Shown: positions 1,991 to 27,943, numbered from the stretch's first letter. The stretch is 32,287 nt of DNA from Candidatus Hydrothermarchaeales archaeon (GCA_036444275.1 JAZGAD010000041.1:1-32287), one strand, 5' to 3'. Numbers and translations: made by a program. Notes: generated from the letters alone by a model not told the origin.

Positions 1991-4900
1991 TTATAGGAGG
2001 CGTTTGCCCTGTTCTGTTACTTCTAAGAGTTTACGTCTGCCCTTCCTGGATTCTTTTATCAAGCCATTATTCTTCAGTATTCGTATCCTTTTTATCACCG
2101 TGGGCTTACTCAAATTAAGCCCCTTCAAGATGTCGGTGACACTGGGCATCCTTCCAGCGCTGTTTTGTTCATAGATGAAGGCCAGGAGTTCCATTTCACC
2201 CTCGGACAGGGATATCTTGCTCCTAAGCTCCACTTCCCTCGTTTCTTCTTCCAAGATAGCTAATTGTTCTTCCCCCAGCGCCCTTGGATCCATAGAGACT
2301 AGGAGTATGGCATCCCTCCCGTAGAAGAGGTCCACTAGTTCTTGGATGAAGACCACTGACTCCCTGAATCCCTTCTGGAGTATCATATACTCGAATCTGT
2401 CGAGGAGGACAACTGTGTCCATCACTAAGTGATCCCTAATTACTTGCATGATATCCGTGAAATTTGGGGGCACAGTATTCTCGCCGTGGGTACTGCTCAT
2501 CCAGAATACCTTGGAGTCCTCACCCAGCCTTTGCTTGAGGCTCTCAGGCCTGCGCCTCGTTATAACTAATCCGGAATATCCATAGTTTAGTAAGTCCCGG
2601 TATACGTCCACTGTTTTGGCTACATCCAGGTCCTTAACAAGGTAGACCTCACCGTTACGCATATCGTATACCCTCTTATGTTCCATGAGTTTTCGCTCCC
2701 TGGCCTTTACTTCGGTTATATCTGTCAGTACTAGGAGCGAACCCGTATAGGCGTCTTCCTCGAAGAGGGGGGTAGCGCTGACGATGACAGGTATCTCCAT
2801 GTCTTTCCGTGTGGTCATGGCGCACTCGAATTTGTTCGTCTTTCCTTGGCTCCATTCTTGGCTCTTCTTTTCCATCTCGCCATGGAGGCCCTTGGGCGCG
2901 AGCTTCGTCCAGTGTACTCCAACTAGCGTATTATCTGGATATCCAAGCATAGTCGTACACTTGGGGTTGAAGTAGGTTATATGTCCATTGGAGTCGAGCA
3001 TGAGGATGCCCTCTTCCATGCTATGGACGATGTTCTCGTTGAACTCCTTCAGCCTCATTAGCTCAATGGTGCGCTCCTCCACCTTCTCCTCAAGGACTTT
3101 ACTTATTCGGCTTTTCTCCAAAGCCAAGCCCACCTGGTCCCCGAAGTAAGCCAACCTGGAAGCGTCCTCAGCAGTGAGTTCCTCGTGGCTGCCCACTCCT
3201 ATTACGCCCACTACCTTATCGCCGGCCAACAAGGGTACCCCTATCCCCCATTGGGCACCTGATACTTTGGCGATGGTTTTGGCCAGAGCTCTAATGACAG
3301 GCTTGTCTGTATGACTTTTCACCACTCCTTCTATATCCGTTGTGATCAACGGTCGCTTGGTCTTGACTATCTTGGTAATTGCGCTGCCCTTAAAGAGGGG
3401 TGGGGAGTAGTTTAGGGCGGTTACACCTGTAAGTTTCTCTATTTTTTTCACTATTTTTGAGTCCGTATGATAGCTCTTGCATATCATGTGCGTCCCCTCT
3501 TCATTTAAGATATAGATGCCAATTATATGATAATGGAATATACTGATGAGGCTCTCCGTAATAAGCTTGTATACCTCCCCCGCTGGAGCTCCGGAATTCA
3601 GCAGGTTATTCACCTTTTGCAGCAGGCCAAGTTCATCAGTCCTTTCATGCAGCGCAGTATATAGTTGAACCTTATTAATTGCTAAAGATACTTCATTTCC
3701 GAAGAAGGCCAGCCTATCGACGTCTTCTTCTGTCAGCTCTTTCTTCCTGCCGCATCCTATCACTCCAATTACTTCATTGTTGGCTATGAGGGGCACTCCC
3801 ATCCCCCATTTCACCCCGGAGAGTTTGGCTACAACTGGGGCGAGTGCCTGCAGTGCTTTCTTGTCTGTATAGCTCCTAATCACCCAAGCAACATCTGGGG
3901 TGATCACTGGCTTCTTCTTTTTAACAATCTCATTCAAGATGCTCCCCTTGTAGAGCGGGATTACGAGACCGCTGGCTTTTACTCTCGTCGCATCCTCGAT
4001 TTTCCTGGCTATTTTAGAGGGAGCATAATAGGCCTTGAGTACTAAGTGTTTTTTCTCCTTGTCTAGTAGGTGTATGGCAGTGAGGTCATAGCCAAATACA
4101 TATGCGAGCCCCTCTACGATTGTCTGAAACACCTCCTCCAATGGTGTCCCTATATTCAGCATCTCGTTAATTCGTTGCAAAAGGAGCAGTTCTGTGTTGA
4201 CAGTCTTTAATTCACGGGTCCTTTCTTCGACCTTTTGTTCCAGATGCTCAGAGTATTCTTCCAGTTTCTCTTCCATTTGCTTGCGCTTGGTGATGTCCCT
4301 TCCGATCGATTCGAAATAGAGTGTTTTACCTTTTTCATCTGTTATTGGAATTATGGTATACTCAAGAATAATTTTATGACCGTCTTTCGTTATCCAGCCA
4401 AGGACAGCGTTTTTTATTGGTTTTTTGGTGGTATTAATTTCTTCCATAATTTCTTTTTGCTTTTCTATATAATCGGGGTGGATTATTTTATATCCAAGAG
4501 TAGGGTCAGCCACCCACTCTGCTTGTGAATATCCCAATAGGCGCTCGGCAGCGGGATTCGCATAGATAACATGTCCTCCTTTGGCCTCCACTCTGAAAAT
4601 GACTTCATCGGCATTATCTGTTATCCGGTCATAGTTTTCCTTTATCTCTTTCATCTCATTCGCAGCTTGCTTGCGCTTGGTGATGTCGTCAAACACTGCA
4701 ACAAAATATTCTTTTTTTGGACTATATACAGAGATAGAAAGCCACATTTCTAAAGGCTCAAAATAGATATCGAATTTAGTCTCTTTTCCAGTTAGAGCAA
4801 CTTTTCCATAGATGTCGAATAATTCTGGATGTGTGTCTTTAATGCCTGGTATTGCTTCGGTAACTTTTTTCCCAACTACGTCTTCTTTTTTTAGCCCTGT

Positions 4901-5443
4901 TAGTCTTTCAAAAGAATCGTTGACTTCGAGATAAACAAAGTCTATTGGGTGATCATTTTTATCTAATAAGATTTTGCAATAAGCAAAACCATCGAGCATA
5001 TTATCAAACAATGAACGGTATTTGGACTCGCTCTCCCGCAGTGCCTCATCCGTTACCTTGCGCGCCTGTTCTAGACGGTGTTTATCTAACGTCTCCTCCA
5101 ACCGGTGGACCACTTTTTCAATGACTAGAGGCTTGACGAAGTATCCGTTGGCGCCGTCCTTTAAGGCATCAATCGCGTTTTCGAGGGTGGCATGCCCGGT
5201 GATGATAATGCACACCATCTCGGGATAGCATTTTTTGAATTCCCTTAAAAGCTCTGCCCCATCCATGTCCGGGAGCTTAATATCAACTAGGGCGGCATCG
5301 AAGGTCGTCTTCTTTGCCTTATTAATAGCTTCACGCCCAGTACTGGCTGTGGCAACGTTGTAGCCCTTCTCTGAGAGTATATCGAGTAGGGTCTCCCGTG
5401 TTCCCTGGTCGTTGTCTATGATCAAAAGCTTAGTTTCAGCCAC
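1991..5443 (-). CDS. Multi-sensor response regulator: REC-PAS-PAS-GAF-GAF-PAS-DUF835(KaiC-like)-winged HTH
   Basis: REC (LLIIDND...LVDIKLPDMDG...IITGH...FVKP). PAS domains ending DITKRKQ (twice) and DITEVK. Two homologous GAF repeats (WGMGVPL/WGIGVPL). DUF835-like 'GYSGLVITRRRPE...VFWMS...VVLLDRFEYMIL'. C-terminal HTH 'LSKPTVIKRIRILKNNGLI...GRRK'. Start moved from GTG 5452 to GTG 5443 because the SD GAGGTGA lies at 5450-5456. Confidence 0.9.
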   Translation of the reverse strand: MAETKLLIIDNDQGTRETLLDILSEKGYNVATASTGREAINKAKKTTFDAALVDIKLPDMDGAELLREFKKCYPEMVCIIITGHATLENAIDALKDGANGYFVKPLVIEKVVHRLEETLDKHRLEQARKVTDEALRESESKYRSLFDNMLDGFAYCKILLDKNDHPIDFVYLEVNDSFERLTGLKKEDVVGKKVTEAIPGIKDTHPELFDIYGKVALTGKETKFDIYFEPLEMWLSISVYSPKKEYFVAVFDDITKRKQAANEMKEIKENYDRITDNADEVIFRVEAKGGHVIYANPAAERLLGYSQAEWVADPTLGYKIIHPDYIEKQKEIMEEINTTKKPIKNAVLGWITKDGHKIILEYTIIPITDEKGKTLYFESIGRDITKRKQMEEKLEEYSEHLEQKVEERTRELKTVNTELLLLQRINEMLNIGTPLEEVFQTIVEGLAYVFGYDLTAIHLLDKEKKHLVLKAYYAPSKIARKIEDATRVKASGLVIPLYKGSILNEIVKKKKPVITPDVAWVIRSYTDKKALQALAPVVAKLSGVKWGMGVPLIANNEVIGVIGCGRKKELTEEDVDRLAFFGNEVSLAINKVQLYTALHERTDELGLLQKVNNLLNSGAPAGEVYKLITESLISIFHYHIIGIYILNEEGTHMICKSYHTDSKIVKKIEKLTGVTALNYSPPLFKGSAITKIVKTKRPLITTDIEGVVKSHTDKPVIRALAKTIAKVSGAQWGIGVPLLAGDKVVGVIGVGSHEELTAEDASRLAYFGDQVGLALEKSRISKVLEEKVEERTIELMRLKEFNENIVHSMEEGILMLDSNGHITYFNPKCTTMLGYPDNTLVGVHWTKLAPKGLHGEMEKKSQEWSQGKTNKFECAMTTRKDMEIPVIVSATPLFEEDAYTGSLLVLTDITEVKARERKLMEHKRVYDMRNGEVYLVKDLDVAKTVDVYRDLLNYGYSGLVITRRRPESLKQRLGEDSKVFWMSSTHGENTVPPNFTDIMQVIRDHLVMDTVVLLDRFEYMILQKGFRESVVFIQELVDLFYGRDAILLVSMDPRALGEEQLAILEEETREVELRSKISLSEGEMELLAFIYEQNSAGRMPSVTDILKGLNLSKPTVIKRIRILKNNGLIKESRKGRRKLLEVTEQGKRLL
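4277..4687. repeat. 21-bp perfect direct repeat (4277-4297 and 4667-4687) bracketing the second PAS module
   Basis: TTGCTTGCGCTTGGTGATGTC occurs twice, 390 bp apart; both copies encode DITKRKQ. Confidence 0.9.
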
Positions 5444-5603
5444 GCCTGTCACCTCTATGGCAGGTCATGGACGGAGCGTGCCAGACGATGTTGTCTCCTA
5501 GTTTGATCCCTTCTAAGAGGGAATCTAGTGTAATGATCCCTGTAGAAAGAAACATCTCTTTCTCCAAGTCCTCCACGTTGGGTGCATTATCTGAGGATGT
5601 CAA
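5436..5603 (-). pseudogene. Truncated N-terminal fragment of a KaiC/RecA-superfamily domain
   Basis: 'FLSTGIITLDSLLEGIKLGDNIVW' matches the STG..LD.LL.G start of KaiC/RAD55-like domains, but the ORF stops ~13 codons later, overlapping the regulator start. Confidence 0.6.
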
Positions 5604-9032: not shown

Positions 9033-9455
9033 ATGGCTCTGCTTTATCTCGATACAAACATCTATTTGGACTATTGGGAAGCAAGAAGCGACAAGATGAG
9101 ACCGCTTGGCGAATTTGCGTACTCTGTCCTACGCAGAACCGTCGAGTGTGAATTCATAATTTTGATCTCAGACCTCGTTTTAACCGAGCTGAGGAATTTT
9201 ATAGAAGACGCTGAAATCAAAGAGGTCCTTTCAAGTCTTAAGGAAAACAATAAGCTGGTGCTCAAAAAAGTAAGCGATCCCGTCGTAAGTGAGGCAAAGA
9301 CGCAGAAGAAAAGGCATGCAGAAGTCCCGCTTCCAGATTTGATACACTACTGTTTTGCGATTAGAAACAAGGTTGATGTGCTTGTTACTAGGGACGCCCA
9401 CTACTCAGTGCTGCCACAAGATAAAATAAAAATAAGAAAACCCGAGGAAATTTAA
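9033..9455 (+). CDS. PIN-domain (VapC-like) ribonuclease
   Basis: YLDTNIY...LTEL...PDLIH...LVTRDAHY acidic PIN motifs. Confidence 0.88.
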   Translation: MALLYLDTNIYLDYWEARSDKMRPLGEFAYSVLRRTVECEFIILISDLVLTELRNFIEDAEIKEVLSSLKENNKLVLKKVSDPVVSEAKTQKKRHAEVPLPDLIHYCFAIRNKVDVLVTRDAHYSVLPQDKIKIRKPEEI

Positions 9456-11182: not shown

Positions 11183-12670
11183 CTATTCTGAGATGTTCTG
11201 ATATTTGAAGAGGTTCAGCTCGTCTAGATAGAATACATAGGTGCCGAGGGGAATTTCGGGGCCGCCGCCGACGGAGATGGAAAACATCTCGACTTGGTCG
11301 AGGTCGAGTTGGCTGTTCTCATCGAAGTTATCTCCCCAGGGGTCCAGTCTAAAACCAGAGAAGGGAACGCGGTCCTTGACCCAACCCTCTTTCTTAAAAC
11401 TCCTCATGCGGAAATACATATATCTGCTTCGGTCTTTCTCCTCCAAGGACAAGGCCAATCTACCCAAGCTAAGGGGCTCTGGCACATAGGACCAAATTGT
11501 TATGCCATCGTAGCCGGCGAGCTGGGTTTTAATCAATCCAATGGCCGCGAAGCTGTCCTCTTCGCCCAAGATCTCCACGCTGACCTTCATGGACTTACCG
11601 GCCTTAGAAAATTCGGTGCTCTGGGTGATATCCAATAAAGCCTCTGGACCTTCCATAGGGAACCAGTTGCCCACATCCTCCATACCGTCCAGCCTGAACT
11701 CCACTATTGGACGAGGCGTCTCTGGTGGCCGCGTTATGGGCGGAGGCCTGGTCGTAGGCGCAGCAGTGACGACAGGCGGTGCAAGCGTAATCATTGGACT
11801 CACAGTAGTTGGTTGAGGCCCCATCGGAGCCCGTGTCTTGGTTTCAATAAGTGGAGGAGAGGTTTTTATGGCAGGTGCCGTCTTCTTCCCTCCGAATATA
11901 CCCTGAAAGACAGCTATGCTTACTAGCAATAGCACGACGAAAGCCACGACTTTGACCAAGGGCAGTTTTCTTTTCACTTCTCCTACTTCGGCTTTGGCTA
12001 CTGGGACCTCCCCTATAGGAGCCAATTTGAAACCATGTTTCGTAACCTGGAATTCGACCCAATTTTGGGAATACGTGATTCCTTTGGCGAAGAGCACCCT
12101 GAACTTCCTCTTGAGGCTTGGGGCTTCTTCCAGCCTCATCTCGAGGACGGCATCCACCATGGCCTTCAGCGTTATGACCATCTTCTCATCGTGCATCTCC
12201 TCCTGCAGGGTGTAGAGGGCGAAGCCGTAATCCATTTTGATCTTAATATTGATGGACTCGAAGAACTTCCTAATCTCACTTTCTGATGCGTGTAGGAAAA
12301 ACGTGGATAAAGAGTTGAATATTATTCTCACGGGTTTCCCCAGAGCCTCGGCCGCCTCTGAGATCCTCACGCTTACCATGTTCAGATTCGCCGGGTTGTC
12401 TACGTAGAGGACCTTTTCATCCTTAGGGCCGGCTGCCCTAGTAAATACGTCCACAAAAAGAAAGCTGTTGCCCTCGTAGGCTCCTAAGTCTACGTCCAGT
12501 TCCTTCATCCGGTCCCTGATTTCTGAAGGGCTCTTCACAGTTGTTACGTATACCACCTTTTCATTGTTTTTGAGGTAGCCCTTCATCAGGTGGAGGCAGT
12601 ACTCAGATTTCCCTACGCCAGGAGACCCGAGCAGCAGTACGCTATACTTTTTGGGAAACACTTCGTCCAT
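11183..12670 (-). CDS. KaiC/RAD55-like ATPase - TM helix - Pro/Thr linker - carbohydrate-binding (CBM11/CIA30-like) domain fusion
   Basis: Walker A GSPGVGKS; 'YVDNPANLNMVS' and 'LKAMVDAVLEM'; TM VVAFVVLLLVSIAVFQGIF; P/T-rich linker; C-terminal 'YDGITIW...GWVKDRVPFSGF...LDLDQV...FYLDEL' jelly-roll pattern. Confidence 0.85.
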   Translation of the reverse strand: MDEVFPKKYSVLLLGSPGVGKSEYCLHLMKGYLKNNEKVVYVTTVKSPSEIRDRMKELDVDLGAYEGNSFLFVDVFTRAAGPKDEKVLYVDNPANLNMVSVRISEAAEALGKPVRIIFNSLSTFFLHASESEIRKFFESINIKIKMDYGFALYTLQEEMHDEKMVITLKAMVDAVLEMRLEEAPSLKRKFRVLFAKGITYSQNWVEFQVTKHGFKLAPIGEVPVAKAEVGEVKRKLPLVKVVAFVVLLLVSIAVFQGIFGGKKTAPAIKTSPPLIETKTRAPMGPQPTTVSPMITLAPPVVTAAPTTRPPPITRPPETPRPIVEFRLDGMEDVGNWFPMEGPEALLDITQSTEFSKAGKSMKVSVEILGEEDSFAAIGLIKTQLAGYDGITIWSYVPEPLSLGRLALSLEEKDRSRYMYFRMRSFKKEGWVKDRVPFSGFRLDPWGDNFDENSQLDLDQVEMFSISVGGGPEIPLGTYVFYLDELNLFKYQNISE

Positions 12671-15877: not shown

Positions 15878-16369
15878 CTAGGGTTTCCATACCTTCAGGA
15901 AGTCCACCCTTTCAAAATCACCGTCATTGGTGGCGATGTCTTTAATGTCGTACACTTTGCAGCAGGCTGAATGAAGGGCATCGGAAAACAAGAGCCCATA
16001 CTCCCTTGAGATGTTCAACGCCTTTTCCAGAACATTAGAGGTGTCCAAGATTTTAAACCCGTAGTCTTTGAGAACTTCCCTACTTGCCTTAAACGGCTTA
16101 TTTAAACTTTTAATGAAAGCCGGGTTGCTCTTCAGAAATTTTACAGCATTCTGAGAGACTAACTTCTTCTTGGTATAAACCTCAAAAATCACGAGTTTAT
16201 GAAAAAATTCGTCAAGCACAGTGGAGTTAATATACCCTTCAACTTCGCCGTATTTAACCCTGCCAAGGAAATCCTCGCATGTTTTACTATAGCGGGTGTT
16301 TGTAAAAGCGTATATCAGAATGCTTGTATCAACGAAGACCGGGCCTTTAACTAGGTGCTCCAGCTCCAT
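15878..16369 (-). CDS. vapC: PIN-domain VapC toxin
   Basis: FVDTSILIY...LDEF...SDALH...ATNDGDF; start overlaps the stop of the upstream small gene. Confidence 0.88.
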   Translation of the reverse strand: MELEHLVKGPVFVDTSILIYAFTNTRYSKTCEDFLGRVKYGEVEGYINSTVLDEFFHKLVIFEVYTKKKLVSQNAVKFLKSNPAFIKSLNKPFKASREVLKDYGFKILDTSNVLEKALNISREYGLLFSDALHSACCKVYDIKDIATNDGDFERVDFLKVWKP

Positions 16370-18069: not shown

Positions 18070-18142
18070 GTTATTTTTTAGATTCAATTTTTTGATTCAA
18101 AAAATTTATAACACAGTTGTGTTAACCATTCTAAGGATTGCT

Positions 18143-19057
18143 ATGCCTATTCAAGAAGTCGATAAGATTTGGATGAATGGAAAGCTCGTGGACTGGAAGG
18201 AGGCTAAAATCCATGTCTTAACCCACGCTCTGCACTACGGTTCAGGTGTCTTCGAGGGCATTCGCTGCTACAAAACAGTTAAGGGCCCGGCCGTATTCAG
18301 GCTTAGGGACCACCTCGAGAGACTGCATGACTCTGCCAAGATGTATTTCATGGAGATTCCCTACTCAGTGGACGAGCTTACGGAAGCTACCCGGGAGATG
18401 ATTAAAGCAAATAATTTGGAAGCGTGCTACGTCCGTCCCATTGCCTTTCGTGGGTATGGGGAGATGGGCCTCAACCCATTGAAGAACCCGGTGGATGTAG
18501 CTATTGCAGCGTGGCCTTGGGGAACCTATCTCGGAGAAGAGGGATTGAAGAATGGGATAAGGGTGAAGATAGTATCTATACAGAGAATCACGCCGAATAC
18601 CCTTCCGCCAAAGGCTAAAGCGACTGGGCAATATGCCAATTCCATCTTGGCTAAGCTGGAGGCATTGAACTCTGGCTGCGAGGAGGCCATCCTTTTAGAC
18701 TATAGAGGCTTTGTTTCTGAGGGGCCGGGCGAGAACCTCTTCATAGTCAAAGACGGGGTGATATACACTCCACCGGAACACGCTAGCATATTGAAGGGGC
18801 TAACTAGGGATTCAATCATGACCATTGCAACAGATATGGGCTACGATGTTAAGGAAAATGACTTAACTAGAAGTGACCTATATTTAGCTGATGAGGCATT
18901 TTACACAGGCACCGCAGCAGAGGTCACGCCTATTAGGGAGATAGACAACTACCATGTGGGGAAACCCGGACCGATAACCAAGAGGCTACAAGGCAAGTTC
19001 TTTGAGATCACGAATGGCGAAGATAAGAAATACGAGGCATGGCTGGACTATGTTTGA
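18143..19057 (+). CDS. ilvE: Branched-chain amino acid aminotransferase
   Basis: HALHYGSGVFEGIR, KATGQY (PLP Lys), EGPGENLF, GTAAEVTP. ATG 18143 preferred to the upstream in-frame start in the ORF track. Confidence 0.95.
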   Translation: MPIQEVDKIWMNGKLVDWKEAKIHVLTHALHYGSGVFEGIRCYKTVKGPAVFRLRDHLERLHDSAKMYFMEIPYSVDELTEATREMIKANNLEACYVRPIAFRGYGEMGLNPLKNPVDVAIAAWPWGTYLGEEGLKNGIRVKIVSIQRITPNTLPPKAKATGQYANSILAKLEALNSGCEEAILLDYRGFVSEGPGENLFIVKDGVIYTPPEHASILKGLTRDSIMTIATDMGYDVKENDLTRSDLYLADEAFYTGTAAEVTPIREIDNYHVGKPGPITKRLQGKFFEITNGEDKKYEAWLDYV

Positions 19058-19490: not shown

Positions 19491-19910
19491 TCACGCAGGA
19501 ATCTTCACCGGGCTGGGACCCAGTTTCTTAATGGTGGCTGTGAAATCCTTTATGGTCCTAGCAAATTTCTCCCCCTCATTGGCAGAGATCCAAGTCAAGA
19601 GCAGTCTATCCTTCTCTATGCCTAAGTCTTCTAGGATCTCGTGGATGAAGGATATTCTCTTCTCTGCCTTATAGTTACCAGTGACATAATGGCAGTCCCC
19701 TGGGTGGCAACCCGATACCAGGACTCCATCGGCTCCCTCTGCGAATGCCTTTATGATGAACACCGGGTCTATTCTACCCGTGCACATAACCCTGATTATC
19801 CTAACATTCGGTGGATACTGTAGCCTGCTGGTGCCAGCTAGATCAGCGCCTCCATAGGAGCACCAGTTGCATAGAAAGCCCAATATTTTAGGCTCGTAGT
19901 CATCTGTCAA
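19491..19910 (-). CDS. mvhD: MvhD/FlpD-type [2Fe-2S] subunit
   Basis: [34 protein letters not shown]. Confidence 0.95.
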
Positions 19911-19912
19911 CT

Positions 19913-21937
19913 TTATTTCCCCGTTTTTACCTTTACCTTTATTTTTCCTTTCCCTTTTTCTTTGCTCTTGTTCTTGCCTTTAAGGTCGTCAAAAGCAGCC
20001 TCTATCATGGCTAGAATCTGATTATCCTTGAAATGCCGTAGTTGCACAGCGCCGGTTGGGCAAGCTGCAGAGCACACGCCGCAGCCCTTGCAGAGAGCTT
20101 CCTGCACTTGCGCGCGCTTGTCGACTATTTCTATAGCGTCAAAGTCGCAGACCTTCTCGCAGATTCTGCAGCCTATACAGGTCTCCCTATCCACATACGC
20201 TAGAATTGGCTCTATCTCTACTTCTCCCTTGGCCATGGGTATTGAAGCCCTTGCTGCTGCAGCGCTCCCCTGTGCCACCGCATCCGGAATGTCCTTTGGT
20301 CCTTGGATAGCACCAGCTAGATAGACGCCGTCCTTCAGCGTGTCGACAGGGCGAAGCTTTGGATGGGCCTCCATGAAGAAACCGTCAGAGCTTCTTGATA
20401 TCTTAAGGAGCCTTTGGAGACTTGACGCACCACTAGGCGGCTCCATTCCAACGGATAGGACCAGCATATCTAGTTCTACCTCTATTAGCCTGCAAAGAAG
20501 GGTGTCCTCCACCCTCAGAATGATGTTGTTATCCTCTCCCTCTATTACCTCTGATGGTCTCCCTCGAATAAACTTTACACCATACCTTTCCTTGGCTATC
20601 TTATAGAATTCCTCATAGCCCTTACCAAAGGCACGAATATCCATAAAGAAGATGAAGAGCTCTGCGTCTGGATACTTTTCCTTGTATATCCTGGCGTTTT
20701 TTATAGCATACATGCAGCAAACGCGAGAACAGTACTTATTGCCTACGGTTTCGTCTCTAGAACCGACGCATTGAACAAAGCCTATACGTTTCGGCACCTT
20801 GCCGTCGCTCGGGCGTAGCACTTTGCCGCCGGTAGGCCCAGAGGCGCTACTCAGTCTCTCAAATTGCATGGCGTTGATGACGTTTGGGTATCTCCCGTAG
20901 CCGTATTCCTCCTTCCTCTCGGCATTGAATATGTCGTAGCCGGCTGCAAGGATTATGGTACCAACTTTCTGCTCTATGATCTCGGGTTCCATGTTGTAGT
21001 CTATAGCATCTGGTTCGCATACGTTCTCGCACATGCCGCAGCCAATACAGTTCTCGTCGTCGATGACGTATATGAGTGGCACTGCCTGTGGGAAGGGCAC
21101 GTATATCGCTTTCCTGGTCCCTATCCCGGCATTAAACTCGCTGGGCACCTCGATGGGGCAGTGCTGCGTGCATAGATCGCAGGCAGTGCAGTCATTGGTG
21201 ACATAGCGGGGCTTCTTCTCTATCTTTACAGTATAATTCCCTACGTATCCGTCTACCTCCCTTACTTCTGCGTAAGTGAGTAGCTCTATATTCTCGTGTC
21301 GAGATACATTCACCATCTTGGGGGTGAGGATGCAGGAGGAGCAGTCCATAGTGGGGAAAGTCTTGTCAAGCTTCGCCATATTGCCCCCTATACTTGGCTC
21401 CTTTTCCACTAATGTGACTTTGTAGCCTTGGTCTGCCAGATCTAGGGCAGCCTGGATCCCTGCGATGCCAGCGCCTATAACAAGAACCTGGGCTGTGACC
21501 TTGACCTTAGGCTTTTCTTGAGGCTCTAGCAGTCTCGCCTTAGCGACTGCCATCCGTACGATATCCTTAGCCTTTTCAGTCGCCTTCTTAGGCTCCTGCA
21601 TATGAACCCATGAGCACTGCTCTCTTATGTTGGCCATCTCGAAGAGATAGGGATTAAGCCCGGCTTCCTCGCATACCTTTCTGAATGTCGGCTCATGCAT
21701 ATTGGGAGAGCAGGCAGCGACGACCACGCGGTTAAGCTTGTGTTCCGTTATATCGTCCATGATCATCTTCTGACCAGGATCAGCGCAGACGAATTTGTAT
21801 TCCTTCGCTAATACAACATCGTCAAGCTTCCCAGCATACTTAGTCAATTTTGCGTTGTCAATTACGCCTGCGATGTTCACACCGCAATCGCAAATGTATA
21901 CCCCAATTCTGGGGTCCTCTCCATTCTTCTTGGCCAA
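19913..21937 (-). CDS. hdrA: Heterodisulfide reductase subunit A (electron-bifurcating flavoprotein)
   Basis: [49 protein letters not shown]...CSRVCC and ferredoxin motifs. TTG 21937 preferred as start (GGAGA upstream); the ORF track starts at 21955. Confidence 0.97.
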
Positions 21938-22087
21938 TTTGCTATCTCCATCCAAAGCAAAGCAGACATTGGATTTGATTTTTGCGCTCTTTTCAGCTTT
22001 TTAACATCGTGATTATTAAGTGAATTGGAATTTAAATTAGGAACCAAGCATAAGTTTTTATCTTTTAGCTTTAAACTGGAATGTAAT

Positions 22088-22609
22088 ATGAACATATCTG
22101 AGCTAGAGCAACTGTGGGTGGCCACTATGCGGATGGGAACCGAAGTCAAAAAGAAATCAGGATTAGATTTGACAAGAGCGTTTGGGTTGCTGAGGGATGC
22201 AAAATCCCTGTTGAATGAGTGCAGATTGGACAATGATGCGGATCCGGATTTTCTCAAGAAATCTGAAGACATGATCATTGAAGCCCAGAGAGAGGTCATC
22301 CTCGCGGGGGAAGCATTGGATGCTGAATTCTTGGAGAAATGGAATGATGTCTTCGGTAGGATAGTGCGGGGGGAGACTATTTGGGAGTTTCCAATTTCCA
22401 AGCCGAGTTTCTATCCTAATATGCCAAGAGGCAAATGGGTAAAGATAGCCCCTTTGAAAGGATTAAAAGTCAAAAAACTCAGGGATGTGGCTAGGAAATA
22501 TGGAGTGGAGATAGAACCAAGGGAAGGGGACTACCTTTTGATAGGGGACGAGCAGAACCTTAGAAGTGCAATGGAAGAGATAAGGATGTTTATGAAGGTG
22601 AAACAATGA
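22088..22609 (+). CDS. DUF2096-like archaeal protein
   Basis: 'EQLW', 'FLEKW' and 'FYPNMPRGKWVKI' resemble the DUF2096 family; ATG 22088 preferred; stop overlaps the next gene (ATGA). Confidence 0.7.
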   Translation: MNISELEQLWVATMRMGTEVKKKSGLDLTRAFGLLRDAKSLLNECRLDNDADPDFLKKSEDMIIEAQREVILAGEALDAEFLEKWNDVFGRIVRGETIWEFPISKPSFYPNMPRGKWVKIAPLKGLKVKKLRDVARKYGVEIEPREGDYLLIGDEQNLRSAMEEIRMFMKVKQ

Positions 22610-23442
22610 TCGACATACATGCTCATATCTCGCAGTCTAGGAAACCAATACCCCCGGAATTTAAAGACGCTGTTAGGGCATACATGTTCAACACCGGTGT
22701 GGACGTCACACATTATGGAACCGATGAAGATCTGGCGAAAGGTATGAAAGAGAATGCTGTTGCACGGGCATGCATCCTCCCAATAGCAGATTCCAGCCTT
22801 GAGAGCGCTGCAAAGGTTAACAATTTCATTAGGATGATGATGTTGCAGCACTCCTACATAGAGGGGTTCGCCAGTGTAGACCCTACTTCAGATGGTGCCG
22901 AGAGAGAGGTGGATAGGGTACTAAGAGAGGAAGGTCTTAAGGGCTTGGTGGTGGATCCAAGACAGAATTTCGATTTCGCTGGAAGTGATTTCTGGATAGT
23001 GCTAGAAGTAGCGAAGGCTTTGGATGCTGTCATTTTTGTGCATTCCGAATATCTTAGTGGAGACGAATATTTTGATGCCGAGGACGTTAACGAGACGCTC
23101 TTAAGTTTTCCAAAGCTCCGCTTCGTCTTCTCCATTTCAAAATCCAAGGGCTTCATCCTACCAGAGCCCAATGTATACGTGGATACTGCCCACGCGACAA
23201 AGGAGCAGCTGGAAAGTGCCCTAGAAGCTTTTGGGGTTGAGAAGATCCTCTTCGGCTCTGATTTCAAATATAATTTCTATCCGCAATATGAAATAAGCAA
23301 GATCCAGCAACTCGGCATATCTGAAGAGGAAAAGGATATGATCCTGGAGGGTAATGCAGCTAACATTTTGGGTCTACCGTTTTATAAGAAAAGTGACTTC
23401 TTGGATAGAATACCCTTTTTGAAGAGATTTTCCAGTGGATAG
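22606..23442 (+). CDS. Amidohydrolase_2-family TIM-barrel metalloprotein
   Basis: IDIHAH, GFASVDP, FVH, NVYVDTA, KILFGSD, ILEGNA. Confidence 0.88.
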   Translation: MIDIHAHISQSRKPIPPEFKDAVRAYMFNTGVDVTHYGTDEDLAKGMKENAVARACILPIADSSLESAAKVNNFIRMMMLQHSYIEGFASVDPTSDGAEREVDRVLREEGLKGLVVDPRQNFDFAGSDFWIVLEVAKALDAVIFVHSEYLSGDEYFDAEDVNETLLSFPKLRFVFSISKSKGFILPEPNVYVDTAHATKEQLESALEAFGVEKILFGSDFKYNFYPQYEISKIQQLGISEEEKDMILEGNAANILGLPFYKKSDFLDRIPFLKRFSSG

Positions 23443-23443
23443 C

Positions 23444-24682
23444 ATGGGAAAATATGCACTCAGATGTTTGGAATGCAACGCAGAGCTCACATTTGAGAAG
23501 TTTCGTTTTAAGTGCCAGGAGCACAATGCCTTAGTAAGGAGCATATATTCTAAAAAAAGGATAACGTTTAGAGATCTCCCCGGCATTTGGAAGTTCTATG
23601 ACTGGCTTCCCGTGGAAGGGGCAAGTGAATATGAGGGGAGGTCTATCACCTACAAGAGTGAGGGCCTAGCCAAGGAGCTTGGCTTGGAAAATCTATTTAT
23701 CTCTTTCAGCGGGTACTGGCCCGAAAGAGGGGGGCTAATTCAGACCTGTACGTTCAAGGAACTTGAAGCAATCGCTACCTTGCAGTATGCTGCAGGGTGC
23801 AAGACAAGACTAGTAATCGCCTCGGCTGGAAACACGGCTAATGCCTTCGCATATATTGGCTCAACGCAGAAGTTTCCAGTTATCTTGGTGGTGCCCAAAA
23901 AATGCCTCTGTGATATCTGGGTTCCAGAGCTGGATACCTCACTCGTTAAGACTATAATCATCGAGGATGGGGATTATTCTGATGCGATATCCCTGGCTGA
24001 GAAGCTGTCTAGGCGGGAGGGCCTAACCTATGAAGGTGGAGCAAGAAACATTGCTAGGAGAGATGGGCTCGCCACTGTACTTCTAGATGCAGTGCGAATC
24101 ATGAAAGAGCTACCTGGGCATTATTTTCAAGCAATTGGAAGTGGAACAGGTGCCATAGCTACTTTGGAGTCTGGGTTAAGATTGCTAGGCGATGGACGCT
24201 TTGGAGAGGCGTTACCCAAGTTTCATCTCTCCCAAAATCTGCCATTCATCCCGATGGTGAGAGCATGGAAGGAAGGACGTAGGAAAATAACTAGGGAAGA
24301 GATGCCTAAGGAGAATGTTCTTGACATCGTTTATGCCAGAGTACTTACCAATAGATATCCTCCTTATAGCGTAAGGGGCGGTGTCTATGATGCCCTTCAA
24401 TCCACGAAAGGGAAAACCTATGGGATAACCAATGAAGAAGCAAAGGAGGCTTCAAGGTTTTTCAAAGAGCAGGAAGGGATCGACATCCTCCCAGCTGCTG
24501 CTGTGGCCGTAGCTTCGCTGATCAAGGCCATCGAAGTTGGGGAAGTAGGCTTGAAGGACAAGATCTTGCTGAATGTAACTGGGGGTGGAAAGAAGAGACT
24601 AAAGGAGGATATCACCCTCCAAGAGCTAAAGGCAGATATAAGTATAAACAAGGATACGCCCGTGGGAGACATCGATATATGA
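23444..24682 (+). CDS. Cysteate synthase (PLP, threonine-synthase fold)
   Basis: FSGYWPERG, TCTFKELEA, ASAGNTA, GDYSDAI, EGGARNIARRDG, YFQAIGSGTG and VLTNRYPPYSVRGGVYDAL are characteristic of cysteate synthase; adjacent to comDE. Confidence 0.92.
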   Translation: MGKYALRCLECNAELTFEKFRFKCQEHNALVRSIYSKKRITFRDLPGIWKFYDWLPVEGASEYEGRSITYKSEGLAKELGLENLFISFSGYWPERGGLIQTCTFKELEAIATLQYAAGCKTRLVIASAGNTANAFAYIGSTQKFPVILVVPKKCLCDIWVPELDTSLVKTIIIEDGDYSDAISLAEKLSRREGLTYEGGARNIARRDGLATVLLDAVRIMKELPGHYFQAIGSGTGAIATLESGLRLLGDGRFGEALPKFHLSQNLPFIPMVRAWKEGRRKITREEMPKENVLDIVYARVLTNRYPPYSVRGGVYDALQSTKGKTYGITNEEAKEASRFFKEQEGIDILPAAAVAVASLIKAIEVGEVGLKDKILLNVTGGGKKRLKEDITLQELKADISINKDTPVGDIDI

Positions 24683-25800
24683 ATGAAGATATCGTTATTC
24701 AGCTCCTGAAAGAAGCAGGTGTAGACCTCATCGCCTCCTTACCCTGTGACAAGATCAAAGGGCTTTATATCCAGGTCACTGAAAACTTTAGACATGTACC
24801 GCTGACGAGAGAAGAGGAAGGCGTAGGCATATGCGCTGGAGCCAGCCTTGCAGGTGCAAAGCCTGCGCTACTAATTCAAAGCTCTGGAATGGGCAATGCA
24901 ATAAATACCCTTTGCTCCCTTACCAAGGTCTACCATCTGCCACTTGCAATTCTCGTAAGCTGGAGGGGTATTTATGAAGAGAAGATCCCTGCACAGATAC
25001 CCATGGGAAAGTATCTGCCAAGGGTTTTGGATGCCTTGGAGATAAACTACACTATGATTCACGAAAAGGGGCAGATCCCTCTTATGAAGCCCGCTCTAGA
25101 AGATGCTTACAAAAAGAATAGTGTATGCGCGGTTCTACTGAGCCCGAAGATATGGGGGGGTAGAGGTGTTGAATCCAAATCCAGCCCTGGGGAACGAAAG
25201 GTTAAGGCACTGCGCTATGAAGGTAGAGGCGTTCACCCTACTTTGACTAGATTCGAAATCATCCAACTCGTAGCTCCATTTTTAGAGGAAAAGGCTGTGG
25301 TTTGCAACCTGGGGATTCCCAGCAAGGAGCTTTTCTATGTAAAGCATCAGGAGTCGAACTTCTATATGCTTGGAAGCATGGGGATGGCCTCATCTATAGG
25401 CCTTGGTATAGCTATGAATACAAAAAAAGAGGTAGTAGTGATAGATGGGGACGCAAGCCTTTTGATGAACCCTGGTGCTCTGGCTACGATAGCACAAATA
25501 AGTCCAGAGAACATGACTATCCTATCAATAGATAATGGGGCTCATGGCTCAACTGGGAGCCAACCCACGGCTACGATGAGTGTTGCGAATCTCGATATGA
25601 TAGCTAGGGGCTTCGGCCTTGAAAAGGTATACAAGGCAGCAACAAAAGATGAAATCCACGGGATCTTCGAAGAACTTGAGGGTGAGAGTGGGCCAAACTT
25701 TGTCCATGCCCTCGCAAAGCAGGGAAATGCTGATGTCCCCAATATCCCCTTAACACCTGCGGAGATAAAGCATCGATTCATGGAATTTTTAAGAAAATGA
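24679..25800 (+). CDS. comDE: Sulfopyruvate decarboxylase, fused alpha/beta
   Basis: SLPC, REEEGVGICAG, QSSGMGN, SWRG, AQIPMG; NFYMLGSMG; ThDP motif DGDAS...DNG. Confidence 0.93.
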   Translation: MNEDIVIQLLKEAGVDLIASLPCDKIKGLYIQVTENFRHVPLTREEEGVGICAGASLAGAKPALLIQSSGMGNAINTLCSLTKVYHLPLAILVSWRGIYEEKIPAQIPMGKYLPRVLDALEINYTMIHEKGQIPLMKPALEDAYKKNSVCAVLLSPKIWGGRGVESKSSPGERKVKALRYEGRGVHPTLTRFEIIQLVAPFLEEKAVVCNLGIPSKELFYVKHQESNFYMLGSMGMASSIGLGIAMNTKKEVVVIDGDASLLMNPGALATIAQISPENMTILSIDNGAHGSTGSQPTATMSVANLDMIARGFGLEKVYKAATKDEIHGIFEELEGESGPNFVHALAKQGNADVPNIPLTPAEIKHRFMEFLRK

Positions 25801-26714
25801 AACTGCGGATAGGGCATCTCTCAACCGCTTACCATACCTCTTTGATATTGATGGGTATGGACATTGAAAAAAGGATGGGAGTAAAACCAGTTTGGAAATT
25901 ATTTGGAGGGGGACCGGGCATCGTCCAGGCACTAGCTCGTGGAAATGTAGATTTGGGGTATATAGGCTTGCCGCCAGCGATGATCGGCATCGATAGAGGT
26001 ACGCCCATCAAGTGCGTTGCAGGAGGGCATGTCGAAGGAACTATAATGATCGGTAAGAAGAGCCTTAAATCGCTAGAGGAATTAGGTGATGTTAGGGAGA
26101 CGCTCTTGCAACTTGAGGGCAGGGCGATAGGAGCGCCACCAAAAGGCTCGATACATGACGTGATTATAAGAGACCTACTCGAAAAAAATGATTTAAAAGA
26201 CGAGATAGAAGTCAAAAACTTTGAATGGGCTGATTTCATTCCGGAGGCAATGGAGAATGGAGAGCTTACCGCCGCCGTTGGCACGCCTCCCTTAGCAGCT
26301 ATCGTTCTTCGGACGCTTGATGCTAAAATAATAATCCCGGCTTCCAGGCTTTGGCCAAATAATCCGAGCTATGGTATAATAGCGAGGAATGAACTAATAG
26401 TGGATCATCCGGATGTTATCGAAGATTTCTTGGAGGTACACGAGGAGGCCTCCAATCTCATAAGGATGCATCCAAAGGATGCAGCGCGGATAGCCTCACA
26501 GGTTATAGGGATGGTCGATGAGGATTTTGTGCTTCAGACCTATGGAATCTCTCCGAAATATTGTGCAAGCCTCTCAGATGAATTCGTTGCGTCCACCCTA
26601 GCATTTGTGCCCGTACTATCCAAATTAGGGTATATCTCAAATGTGTTAACAAAAAAAGAGATTTTCGATTTCAGATTCATCGAAAAGGTTCATCCGGAAG
26701 CGCCTCATTACTGA
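25797..26714 (+). CDS. NMT1/THI5/SsuA-like substrate-binding-fold protein without a signal peptide
   Basis: Starts directly with MKLRIGHLST. 'GNVDLGYIGLPP', 'GSIHD' and 'HPKDAA' are PBP2 NrtA/SsuA-like motifs. ATGA overlap with comDE; no permease or ATPase gene adjacent. Confidence 0.85.
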   Translation: MKLRIGHLSTAYHTSLILMGMDIEKRMGVKPVWKLFGGGPGIVQALARGNVDLGYIGLPPAMIGIDRGTPIKCVAGGHVEGTIMIGKKSLKSLEELGDVRETLLQLEGRAIGAPPKGSIHDVIIRDLLEKNDLKDEIEVKNFEWADFIPEAMENGELTAAVGTPPLAAIVLRTLDAKIIIPASRLWPNNPSYGIIARNELIVDHPDVIEDFLEVHEEASNLIRMHPKDAARIASQVIGMVDEDFVLQTYGISPKYCASLSDEFVASTLAFVPVLSKLGYISNVLTKKEIFDFRFIEKVHPEAPHY

Positions 26715-26764
26715 GCAAAATTAATAATAAGGCTATTATAGGTGTGTAGATGAGGAGGTGCTGC

Positions 26765-27127
26765 ATGGATAAGCTCTTGATTGTATTGACAGCCGGCATG
26801 GACCAGCCCAAGCTGGCGCGTACTGCCCTGATGTTCGCAGCTATAAGTGCGTCTATGGGTGTGAAAACTACCCTCTACGCTGTGCAGGACGCCATCGATG
26901 TCTTAGTGGAAGGTGTTGCAGAAAAGGAGACGCCTAAACCCAACGGAGCGAGCATAAAACAGCGGTTGGAAGAAGCAATACGCCACGGAGTAGTACTTGA
27001 CGTATGTGAGACTGCCTGCGCCGCGAAAAAGATCAAACAGGAGAATCTTGTCGAGGGAGCGAAGATAGCTGGAGCAGCTACGCTCATAGACCTCGCATTG
27101 GATAGTGATAGTGTCCTCTGCTTCTGA
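26765..27127 (+). CDS. DsrE/DsrF-family protein
   Basis: 'LLIVLTAG...A..A.MG...LY...DA...GVVLDVCETAC...LVEGAKIAGAATL' DsrE pattern. ATG 26765 follows SD GAGGAGGTG. Confidence 0.88.
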   Translation: MDKLLIVLTAGMDQPKLARTALMFAAISASMGVKTTLYAVQDAIDVLVEGVAEKETPKPNGASIKQRLEEAIRHGVVLDVCETACAAKKIKQENLVEGAKIAGAATLIDLALDSDSVLCF

Positions 27128-27240
27128 TTTTTAGTTTATTGTTGCCTGTTACGCCTATTCATGCTGCCTAATTAGCTCACTAGTGGGGATGAGGGGCGAG
27201 GGAGATAACGTTATATAAACGTGCTGGACAAGATTATACT

Positions 27241-27612
27241 ATGGAAGTTCAGAGCAGATATAGCAAAGCGATTGATGAGTTTGTTAAGAAGGTGTTGGAA
27301 AAATACGGTAACAGAATAGAGAAGATAATCTTATTTGGGAGCTATGCTAGGGGCGACTTTGAGGGTGAAAGCGATATAGACGTTCTGGTGGTTGGAGACA
27401 TCACCTTGAATGATGCCGTAGATATAACTGTTCCTCTGATGTTAAAGCACGGGAAATACATTTCTCCCAAGGTCAAAACTTCCGAATACTTGAGATTTCT
27501 AGTCAGGGAGGGATCCTCCTTTATAAAAAACGTTCTAGAAGAAGGTGTAGTGATATATGACCGAATGGGAGCGACACCTCGGAAAGGCAGAGGAGAAGTT
27601 CAAGTCAGCTAG
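27241..27612 (+). CDS. Minimal nucleotidyltransferase (MNT) antitoxin
   Basis: ILFGSYARGD...SDIDVLVV. TTATATAA at 27211-27218 suggests a leaderless mRNA. Confidence 0.92.
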   Translation: MEVQSRYSKAIDEFVKKVLEKYGNRIEKIILFGSYARGDFEGESDIDVLVVGDITLNDAVDITVPLMLKHGKYISPKVKTSEYLRFLVREGSSFIKNVLEEGVVIYDRMGATPRKGRGEVQVS

Positions 27613-27943
27613 GATACTCTTCGAGCACGGTCAATATGCCGATGCGGTTAGCAGGGGTTATTATGCGATGTATCACTCTGCCAAGGCTGTACTTTCTTTT
27701 AAAGACATCCACCCAAGGAGGCATGCCGGAGTAATATCCATGTTTGGCTTGCATTTCATTAATGAGGGATACATAGAAGAAACGTATGCGAAAGCGCTTT
27801 CCAGAGGGGAGGAACATCGAAGTGATGCAGACTACGACATTTACTATACGGCAACAAAGGAAGAGGCCGAGGGAGTAATACGGGATGCAGAGGCATTTCT
27901 TGAAAGGATAAAAAAAGCTATCAAGGAAATTCAAGTGAAATAG
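27557..27943 (+). CDS. HEPN-domain protein (MNT-HEPN toxin-antitoxin pair)
   Basis: AVSRGYYAMYHSAKA, 'RHAGVIS.F', R-x4-Y motif (RSDADY). Confidence 0.92.
   Translation: MTEWERHLGKAEEKFKSARILFEHGQYADAVSRGYYAMYHSAKAVLSFKDIHPRRHAGVISMFGLHFINEGYIEETYAKALSRGEEHRSDADYDIYYTATKEEAEGVIRDAEAFLERIKKAIKEIQVK

Follow-up and report, generated by a model that had tools for sequence, protein, structure and literature searches.

An SsuA-like protein family linked to ComDE as a candidate for the last step of archaeal coenzyme M synthesis

The last step of archaeal coenzyme M (CoM) synthesis is debated, and our results bring forward a specific candidate for it, an SsuA-like protein encoded on a stretch of 32,287 nucleotides (nt) from a Candidatus Hydrothermarchaeales archaeon (GCA_036444275.1 JAZGAD010000041.1:1-32287). 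This stretch, referred to here as the window, makes up contig C41 in a metagenome-assembled genome (MAG) of 1.49 Mb and 61 contigs that is 81% complete. It holds a unit of six plus-strand genes that encode, in this order, a DUF2096-like protein, an amidohydrolase, cysteate synthase (cysS), a fused sulfopyruvate decarboxylase (comDE), the SsuA-like protein, and a DsrE family protein. The unit is a variant of the phosphoserine-type com cluster in which the slot of methanogenesis marker protein 16 (MMP16, or ComF) is held by an uncharacterized family. The SsuA-like gene is the only conserved com partner among the unexplained genes of the window, and its family is enriched where MMP16 is missing. 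From the sequence comparisons, the lead worth following appears to be this protein, with a PNPOx-like flavoprotein as its partner in relatives, and not DsrE, the amidohydrolase, or HdrA-MvhD. The reading that we favor, which we place somewhat below an even chance, is that the SsuA-like protein acts on sulfoacetaldehyde, either completing the ComF step or taking its place.

In the Discussion of the paper on MMP16 (PMC12068725), that protein is called the "primary" CoM synthase, a backup is described, and a nonorthologous enzyme is left open. Our literature search, which had incomplete coverage and did not extend to supplements, found no description of a link between an SsuA-like protein and CoM synthesis. 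The family tracks ComDE and fills gaps in the distribution of MMP16, including those in climate-relevant methanogens and in the nitrate-dependent methanotroph Methanoperedens. It also bears on the question of which thiol is reduced by the heterodisulfide reductase (Hdr) complexes of nonmethanogenic archaea. If a stronger and more tentative version of the favored reading, given below, is true, lineages without methyl-CoM reductase (MCR), such as Hydrothermarchaeales and some Asgard archaea, Bathyarchaeia, and Nitrospirota, could make CoM as a thiol for orphan Hdr complexes.

Linkage to comDE and complementarity with MMP16

Genes were called from a listing of open reading frames (ORFs) together with Pfam and NCBIfam profile scans of the window (Table 1), and the two com enzymes are identified as cysteate synthase and ComDE. 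The match of the former covers positions 1 to 397 of the 398 in its model, and the latter scores 200.7 bits with TIGR03845 (cut-off, 147.95) and 227.1 bits with TIGR03846 (cut-off, 221.5), the margin for the beta half being small. The phosphonopyruvate decarboxylase model TIGR03297 gives 243.7 bits on the same protein, which is under its cut-off of 312.5. The com locus of Methanosarcina acetivorans is reported to have the order cs (MA3297), comDE (MA3298), and MMP16 (MA3299) (PMC12068725, PMC12713407), so the first two genes and their order are the same as here, and the SsuA-like gene holds the MMP16 slot since it is likewise the third gene, directly after comDE. Unlike in M. acetivorans, this third gene encodes an SsuA/TauA-fold protein instead of a COG1900-plus-ferredoxin protein, no MCR is found in the host, and an Hdr-associated gene pair and DsrE have joined the unit.

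Co-occurrence was followed in 41 genomes, comprising the genome of the window and 40 relatives; 38 of them, the window's own included, are in-class. Orthologs of the SsuA-like protein (49 to 68% identity; E ≤ 8e-92) are present in 14 of the 41, a set identical to that of the 14 genomes in which cysteate synthase scores over its cut-off. At the level of the order, the com cluster is found in 14 of 35 genomes, with our own counted. Ten related com loci were fetched, and their neighboring genes were identified by tblastn with the window genes and by neighbor clustering. The SsuA-like gene adjoins comDE or cysS at all 10 loci, and at 9 of them, it immediately follows comDE in the same orientation; at the remaining locus (L024), it is divergent and beside cysS. 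cysS is present on nine loci, and the contig of the tenth (L022) begins inside comDE.

The original prediction was of an alternative terminal module made up of the SsuA-like protein, DsrE, and HdrA-MvhD, with the conserved linkage of such accessory genes to cysS and comDE in relatives as the point to look for. What stands of it is the SsuA-like protein, which is com-linked and complements MMP16. DsrE and the amidohydrolase gene are found at none of the 10 related loci, hdrA is found at 1, and the DUF2096-like gene is found at 2, so the module is not borne out in the form proposed, and the adjacency of hdrA is partly inherited synteny. Hdr-type genes as such do recur within a few kilobases of 5 of the 11 com loci, with the window counted, and an HdrD-like plus cytochrome-b-like pair is present at 3 of the 10 related ones.

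A further recurrent neighbor is a 137-amino-acid (aa) PNPOx-like flavoprotein, encoded convergently to the SsuA-like gene at 7 of the 10 related loci. Of the 14 cysS-positive genomes, 11 have an ortholog of it (E ≤ 7e-38), compared to none of the 24 cysS-negative in-class genomes, two of which give weak matches of about 1e-14. As a separate observation, Candidatus Hydrothermarchaeum profundi (G005) has a second, distant SsuA-like paralog (26% identity; contig C9, approximately 1153262 to 1159327), separated by about 5 kb from the genome's PNPOx-like ortholog and located apart from the com cluster.

The association with comDE extends well beyond this class. A scan of species genomes gave 248 loci of the SsuA-like family, and the counts that follow are from the best 80 of these. 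They are from Hydrothermarchaeales, Methanoperedens, other Methanosarcinales, Methanothrix, Methanocellaceae, Methanoregula, Methanospirillum, and Methanohalobium, with further loci from Bathyarchaeia, Hermod- and Atabeyarchaeia, Nitrospirota, Nitrospinota, and others. comDE is present on 15 of the 80. It is directly upstream of the SsuA-like gene in a bathyarchaeial locus (L049) and in Atabeyarchaeum (L075). The two genes adjoin and converge in Nitrospiraceae (L092), are separated by one ORF in Nitrospinota (L095), and lie about 4 to 5 kb apart in Atabeyarchaeia-1 (L064) and at three loci of Methanoregula. In the Halobacteriota genomes G107 and G115, they share 4 nt, with the end of comDE running into the start of the SsuA-like gene. 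Of the 12 carrier genomes tested, 10 gave a ComE. Atabeyarchaeia-1 (G043) and G115 have comDE and the SsuA-like family with no cysteate synthase, and the family therefore seems to be tied to ComDE, and hence to sulfoacetaldehyde, and not to the sulfite-using step.

Two observations stand somewhat apart. The two carrier genomes with no ComE found, G137 and G163 (both Halobacteriota), have mcrA, and neither cysteate synthase nor MMP16 was found in them; their SsuA-like member is divergent (38 to 39% identity) and has the full Cys/His set described below, a combination that does not fit with a role restricted to ComDE. In the bacterial MAG loci L092 and L095, cysteate synthase, ComDE, and the SsuA-like protein are encoded together, pointing to the synthesis of a CoM-type sulfonate in bacteria via the archaeal phosphoserine route; mcrA was not found in G045, the one bacterial MAG tested.

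The neighborhoods of the family also contain genes for sulfur relay, with ThiS-like genes at 16, ThiF at 9, and TusA at 6 of the best 80 loci, and this fits with a sulfur-accepting enzyme, although part of the pattern is lineage synteny. Other neighbors are MoaA (13 loci, mostly Methanoperedens MAGs), a small sulfite reductase (4 loci), and CysK-like and ThiI-like genes. ThiS as a universal sulfur donor was considered and not adopted: tblastn of the window's genome with one Asgard ThiS found none, and at the Asgard loci, ThiS is encoded convergently, inside a block of wide synteny. In Methanospirillum (L107) and two Methanoregula loci (L091 and L093), genes for an ABC-type ATPase and a CobW/HypB-type GTPase are near the SsuA-like gene and, in L107, directly upstream of it; a PF04060 Fe-S protein is encoded in L107 as well and, at a different place, in L090. 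According to a figure legend (PMC12068725, Fig 2), accessory genes of the same kinds, with an unknown role, adjoin CoM genes and MMP16.

The relation to MMP16 was evaluated in an even sample of 151 Halobacteriota genomes, of which 26 have the SsuA-like family, 72 have cysteate synthase, and 71 have MMP16. All 10 genomes with cysS and without MMP16 carry the family, compared to 13 of the 62 genomes with both cysS and MMP16 (Fisher P = 2e-6, uncorrected for relatedness) and to 3 of the 79 without cysS, in which the members are divergent. No MMP16 was found in these 10 carriers after all candidates had been rescored. Seven of the 10 have mcrA and must thus depend on CoM. No COG1900 protein of any kind was found in two of them, Candidatus Methanoperedens nitroreducens (G041) and G126. 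Named MAGs agree with this: in three from Methanoregula and one from Methanocellaceae, the family is present and no MMP16 was found, and a Methanospirillum MAG has both. In a FastTree phylogeny of 66 SsuA-like sequences, rooted at the midpoint and with support values not inspected, the MMP16-less carriers fall in about five places. Hydrothermarchaeales sequences fall in about four places in the same tree, one of them beside Methanocomedens, which we take to be ANME-2a, and gene transfer or repeated loss is possible for the com cluster of this order.

The host itself appears to belong with the MMP16-less carriers. The MMP16/ComF model (TIGR03287) gave only ferredoxin-domain matches in its genome, the best at 27.6 bits against a cut-off of 364, and there was no mcrA candidate. 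Neither MMP16 over the cut-off nor mcrA was found in any of the 38 in-class genomes, and among all 41, mcrA and a true MMP16 are present in the out-group methanogen G038 only. The earlier suggestions that ComF is absent from the window and that the host could be without MCR are supported at the scale of the genome and of its in-class relatives, and they agree with published Hydrothermarchaeota genomes described as having mtrH and no mcr (PMC6775978). A COG1900 relative of approximately 507 to 530 aa, matching model positions 1 to 289, is present in 6 of the 38 in-class genomes and in 1 of the 14 with cysS (G023). The whole-genome search for hdrBC that had been proposed located hdrC-hdrB on contig C10, and an HdrD-like protein is encoded on C44. 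MtrH adjoins a RACo-type corrinoid activator on C12, an MtaA-like URO-D protein adjoins a corrinoid protein on C37, and positions 1 to 6100 of C6 (L116) encode an ATP sulfurylase-TusA fusion followed by two tandem small sulfite-reductase-like genes and an FrhB/FdhB-like gene. With these sulfur genes and the MtrH/RACo and MtaA-like/corrinoid genes, the host appears to have a sulfite route and parts for CoM-type methyl transfer. The arrangement on C6 resembles a split Fsr-like layout, and it could make or remove sulfite.

Fold, conserved residues, and possible roles of the SsuA-like protein

The SsuA-like protein scores 106.5 bits with TIGR01728 (SsuA_fam), below the cut-off of 163.5, and its best sequence match in the PDB is 3un6 (E = 1.2e-10). 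A model of the protein from AlphaFold2 (pLDDT of 90.1 and pTM of 0.89) gave Foldseek matches at a TM score of 0.80 to 0.81 to 6ssy, 3ksx, and 3e4r, with TauA and SsuA as the best folds; further matches include THI5p, other binding proteins, and NrtC/CmpC-type cytoplasmic regulatory domains of nitrate and bicarbonate transporters. No signal peptide, lipobox, or membrane anchor was found in the protein, the N terminus of which (MKLRIGHLS) is strand 1 of the fold. The protein is predicted to be cytoplasmic and to have a sulfonate-binder fold. It differs in this location from periplasmic SsuA and TauA (3ksx, 2x26, and 6ssy), its best structural matches at a TM score of about 0.8, to which its sequence relation is weak (15 to 18% identity); it also differs from them in its invariant Cys/His set and in that no transporter genes were found nearby.

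The family is large, with at least 2,552 cluster representatives at E ≤ 1e-40. Generic transporter-subunit labels are the only source names among the 120 matches listed, and a protein-atlas search gave only generic "substrate-binding protein" clusters. Annotations such as "ABC transporter substrate-binding protein" and "NitT/TauT family," the similarity to SsuA_fam, and the TauA and SsuA fold matches would all point to the substrate-binding subunit of a NitT/TauT-type ATP-binding cassette (ABC) importer of sulfonates. We regard this as most improbable, since the protein has no export signal or anchor and remains below the SsuA_fam cut-off, its gene is translationally coupled to that of a cytoplasmic enzyme, and no transporter-like subunits were found by tblastn and neighbor clustering at the window or at the 10 related loci, which were not fully scanned with Pfam.

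Conservation within the family is concentrated in a set of two cysteines and six histidines. In an alignment of 77 sequences from the best 80 loci, at 38 to 68% identity, C73, H13, H78, H120, and H215 are kept in all 77 and C256, H299, and H304 are kept in 75, and the set is intact even in members at 38 to 46% identity. As judged from the alignment, such a pattern would be unusual for a mere binder. The Staphylococcus aureus binding protein 3un6, which was crystallized with zinc, has GH-EG opposite the GGH-EG of the SsuA-like family; it is, unlike the SsuA-like protein, an extracellular transporter component. A precedent for an enzyme on a binding-protein fold is the HMP-P synthase THI5p/NMT1 (4h6d and 4esx), which shares PF09084 with the SsuA-like protein and has a different chemistry. 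THI5p uses a pyridoxal phosphate (PLP)-bound lysine and a suicide histidine. No lysine is conserved at the 90% level in the 77-sequence alignment, in contrast to what the THI5p reaction needs, and for the same reason, a PLP-Schiff-base transaminase is an unlikely role for the family. MMP16/ComF and L-ASST have the role that is proposed for the SsuA-like protein (conversion of the aldehyde of sulfoacetaldehyde to a thiol), and they share its genomic slot and its link to ComDE, but they have no relation to it in sequence or fold, and the SsuA-like protein has no Fe-S domain.

In the favored reading, cysteate synthase and ComDE make sulfoacetaldehyde from phosphoserine and sulfite, with the transaminase encoded elsewhere, and the cleft of the SsuA-like protein would hold sulfoacetaldehyde by its sulfonate end. 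The Cys/His site, possibly with a metal, would then swap the aldehyde oxygen for sulfur. The sulfur could be taken from sulfide or from a carrier, which would be DsrE here and ThiS or TusA elsewhere, and the two electrons would be delivered by the PNPOx-like flavoprotein in most relatives and by another donor in this host. This would give CoM or a sulfonate thiol very close to it. Where MCR is lacking, CoM could be used in methyl transfer of the MtaA/MtrH type, or the thiol could be cycled by HdrABC-MvhD; the recurring Hdr neighborhood suggests that such a host would cycle its thiol in the form of a (hetero)disulfide. A stronger version, which we put forward more tentatively, is that the family constitutes a third, non-COG1900 CoM synthase, which would act by itself or together with a protein sulfur carrier and the PNPOx-like flavoprotein, and that it is the primary last-step enzyme in MMP16-less methane archaea, such as Methanoregula, Methanocellaceae, and Methanoperedens.

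Several points weigh against the favored reading. The fold is typical of binding proteins and not of enzymes. Thirteen of the 62 Halobacteriota genomes that have MMP16 as well as cysS carry the family too, and in 8 of the 10 without MMP16, the last step could instead be catalyzed by an L-ASST-like COG1900 protein that they encode. The Fisher probability overstates the case, since the genomes are related and the tree suggests about five clades. An abiotic route with sulfide has also been described for the last step (PMC12068725). The small sulfite reductase, CysK-like, and ThiI-like neighbors fit a role in sulfite or sulfur trafficking equally well. No ortholog of the PNPOx-like protein was found in the 81% complete genome of the window, and ComE was not found in 2 of the 12 carrier genomes tested (G137 and G163). 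With the host genome at this level of completeness, the absence of MMP16 and mcrA from it is unproven, and since no MCR is found, a need of the host for CoM itself can only be presumed.

Some of these points are shared by a rival reading, possible though doubtful in our view, in which the SsuA-like protein is a cytoplasmic binder, carrier, buffer, or sensor of a sulfonate or small sulfur oxyanion, such as sulfite (for cysteate synthase), reactive sulfoacetaldehyde, or CoM, and the last step is carried out by sulfide or by an L-ASST-type enzyme. The TauA/SsuA fold and the NrtC/CmpC-type regulatory domains among its matches agree with this, as do the coexistence with MMP16, the L-ASST-like proteins, and the documentation of an abiotic or backup route (PMC12068725). 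The small sulfite reductase genes near the family are found in Methanothrix, Methanotrichaceae, Methanohalobium, and one uncultured-archaeon locus (4 of 80), with CysK-like and CysE-like genes also near in Methanothrix, and such a reductase has been proposed as the source of sulfite for CoM synthesis (PMC6286981). A role in sulfite handling would, however, predict linkage to cysteate synthase, and G043 and G115 have comDE and the family without it. A binder also leaves unexplained both the complementarity with MMP16 (10/10 versus 13/62) and the conservation of two cysteines and six histidines in at least 75 of 77 homologs, and the L-ASST-type enzyme that this reading may call for is missing from G041, G126, and 13 of the 14 cysS-positive Hydrothermarchaeales genomes, in which no COG1900 protein was found.

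Alternatively, and rather less probably, the pathway could end in another sulfonate, such as taurine, isethionate, sulfoacetate, or a new sulfonate thiol, serving as an osmolyte, redox buffer, or Hdr substrate, with the SsuA-like protein acting in that branch. The classical consumer of CoM is missing, with mcrA in 0 of 38 in-class genomes, and the patchy occurrence of the cluster (14 of 35 genomes of the order) is as expected for an accessory trait. The Hdr-type genes near 5 of 11 com loci would also agree with it, and for MCR-less Asgard archaea, CoM genes and an "unidentified heterodisulfide" have been noted (PMC11291895). On the other hand, the same family with the same residues is present in the seven mcrA-bearing, MMP16-less genomes that must obtain CoM, the host encodes, as parts for CoM-type methyl transfer, an MtaA-like/corrinoid protein pair and an MtrH/RACo pair, and the protein has an SsuA-like fold without a nucleotide-binding domain.

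The six-gene unit and its neighbors

The layout first described for the unit was confirmed in every particular, including the start of the DUF2096-like gene at ATG 22088, the gap of about 50 nt before DsrE, and the head-to-head orientation to hdrA-mvhD (Table 1).

Table 1. Positions of the six-gene unit and adjacent features in the window
Feature	Position	Strand	Basis
Class IV aminotransferase (context)	18092..19057	+	PF01063, 186.9 bits
mvhD (FlpD family), downstream of hdrA	19491..19910	-	PF02662, 197.5 bits
hdrA, HdrA2 type, MvhD part split off as its own gene	19913..21955	-	NF040770, 1011 bits
AT-rich divergent spacer, TATA-like stretches 5' of ATG 22088	21956..22087	.	Direct sequence reading
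DUF2096-like, first gene of the unit	22088..22609 (ORF from 22025)	+	PF23100, 25.2 bits
Amidohydro_2, TIM-barrel metal hydrolase	22606..23442	+	PF04909, 59 bits
Cysteate synthase	23435..24682	+	TIGR03844, 539.3 bits (cut-off, 324.9)
Fused sulfopyruvate decarboxylase ComDE	24679..25800	+	TIGR03845 and TIGR03846
SsuA/TauA-fold protein (P0001; NMT1_2/SsuA-like)	25797..26714	+	PF13379, 66.5 bits
DsrE family	26765..27127 (ORF from 26750)	+	PF02635, 65.4 bits (cut-off, 22.7)
T-rich stretch directly 3' of the DsrE stop	27128..27150	+	Direct sequence reading

The four junctions from the DUF2096-like gene to the SsuA-like gene overlap by 4, 8, 4, and 4 nt, and hdrA-mvhD is transcribed away from the unit across an AT-rich spacer of about 130 nt that may serve as a promoter region. 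ATG 22088 is the likely start of the DUF2096-like gene because its homologs begin aligning at residues 19 to 22 of the ORF. The homologs of DsrE begin aligning at residue 7, and GGAGGT stands just 5' of ATG 26765, which is why we take the true gap between the SsuA-like gene and DsrE to be about 50 nt. There is no T-run in this gap, and with the GGAGGT in front of DsrE and the T-run behind it, DsrE is probably cotranscribed with the unit. The T-run after the DsrE stop is a likely end of the transcription unit, with a putative terminator role, and the gene overlaps together with these signals argue for cotranscription of the unit as a whole. Nothing was detected in the window by Rfam or tRNA scans.

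Three modules are combined in the unit, with the cysS-ComDE-SsuA-like core joined by the DUF2096-amidohydrolase pair and by DsrE. The DUF2096-like protein scores slightly below the PF23100 cut-off of 26, while its orthologs (30 to 40% identity) reach 39 to 40 bits, and one of them also matches KH_DUF2096_C (PF09869). For the amidohydrolase, a word-index search gave 13 homologs at E ≤ 1e-10. The two genes are adjacent in G005 and G026, far from com genes. In G005, hdrC, hdrB, DUF2096, and Amidohydro_2 abut on one strand (L131, 4881 to 7625), and in G025, the DUF2096 gene adjoins the hdrA backbone, from which we take the two to be an Hdr-associated pair. The order in G005 suggests that both are accessory to a soluble heterodisulfide reductase. 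The amidohydrolase was rejected as a com enzyme on account of its absence from the related com loci and its pairing with DUF2096 behind hdrC-hdrB.

The backbone in G025 has the order ribB-ilvE-x-mvhD-hdrA / x-DUF2096 with the com genes on another contig, and the adjacency of hdrA-mvhD in the window must then be at least partly inherited synteny. The HdrA protein covers positions 1 to 643 of NF040770 and MvhD covers positions 644 to 774 (200 bits), so the full model is covered only by the two genes together, and HdrA by itself remains below the cut-off of 1100 because its MvhD part is a separate gene. DsrE has a Cys86 that is invariant in six orthologs and that presumably corresponds to the active-site cysteine of DsrE, and this conservation makes it a plausible sulfur carrier. 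The orthologs (48 to 74% identity) occur in the cysS-negative genomes G001 and G009 as well, and they adjoin HdrD-like, cytochrome-b-like, DsbA, or MtaA-like genes. DsrE therefore would be a generic sulfur carrier that is not specific to com and not a required part.

These results bear on the idea that the SsuA-like protein, DsrE, and HdrA-MvhD make up an obligatory machine for the terminal thiolation, which we consider very unlikely. In its favor, the three lie side by side in the window, cotranscription of DsrE is probable and its cysteine is kept, and hdrA is head-to-head with cysS also in G021 (L027). Against this, DsrE is absent from all the related com loci and has orthologs in genomes without cysS, hdrA is found at only 1 of the 10 loci, and the hdrA-mvhD / DUF2096 arrangement exists in G025 with no com genes there.

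The class IV aminotransferase gene of the window lies directly upstream of cysS in G006 (L029), and in G025, it is part of the ribB-ilvE backbone, where there are no com genes. From its position, it is a possible candidate for the cysteate transaminase.

Other genes of the window have no apparent relation to the com unit. Between DsrE and leuS, a nucleotidyltransferase gene (PF18765/PF01909, with a weak MntA-like match) is followed by an overlapping HEPN gene (27241 to 27943), and the pair looks like a type VII toxin-antitoxin system. A large sensory protein of 1,153 aa with a receiver domain, two PAS domains, two GAF domains, and a C-terminal DUF835 is encoded on the minus strand at 1991 to 5452. 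Two PIN-domain genes (9033 to 9455, plus strand, and 15878 to 16369, minus strand) and a KaiC-like ATPase that also matches DUF7504 (11183 to 12670, minus strand) are scattered among the nucleotide-biosynthesis and tRNA-modification genes of the window.

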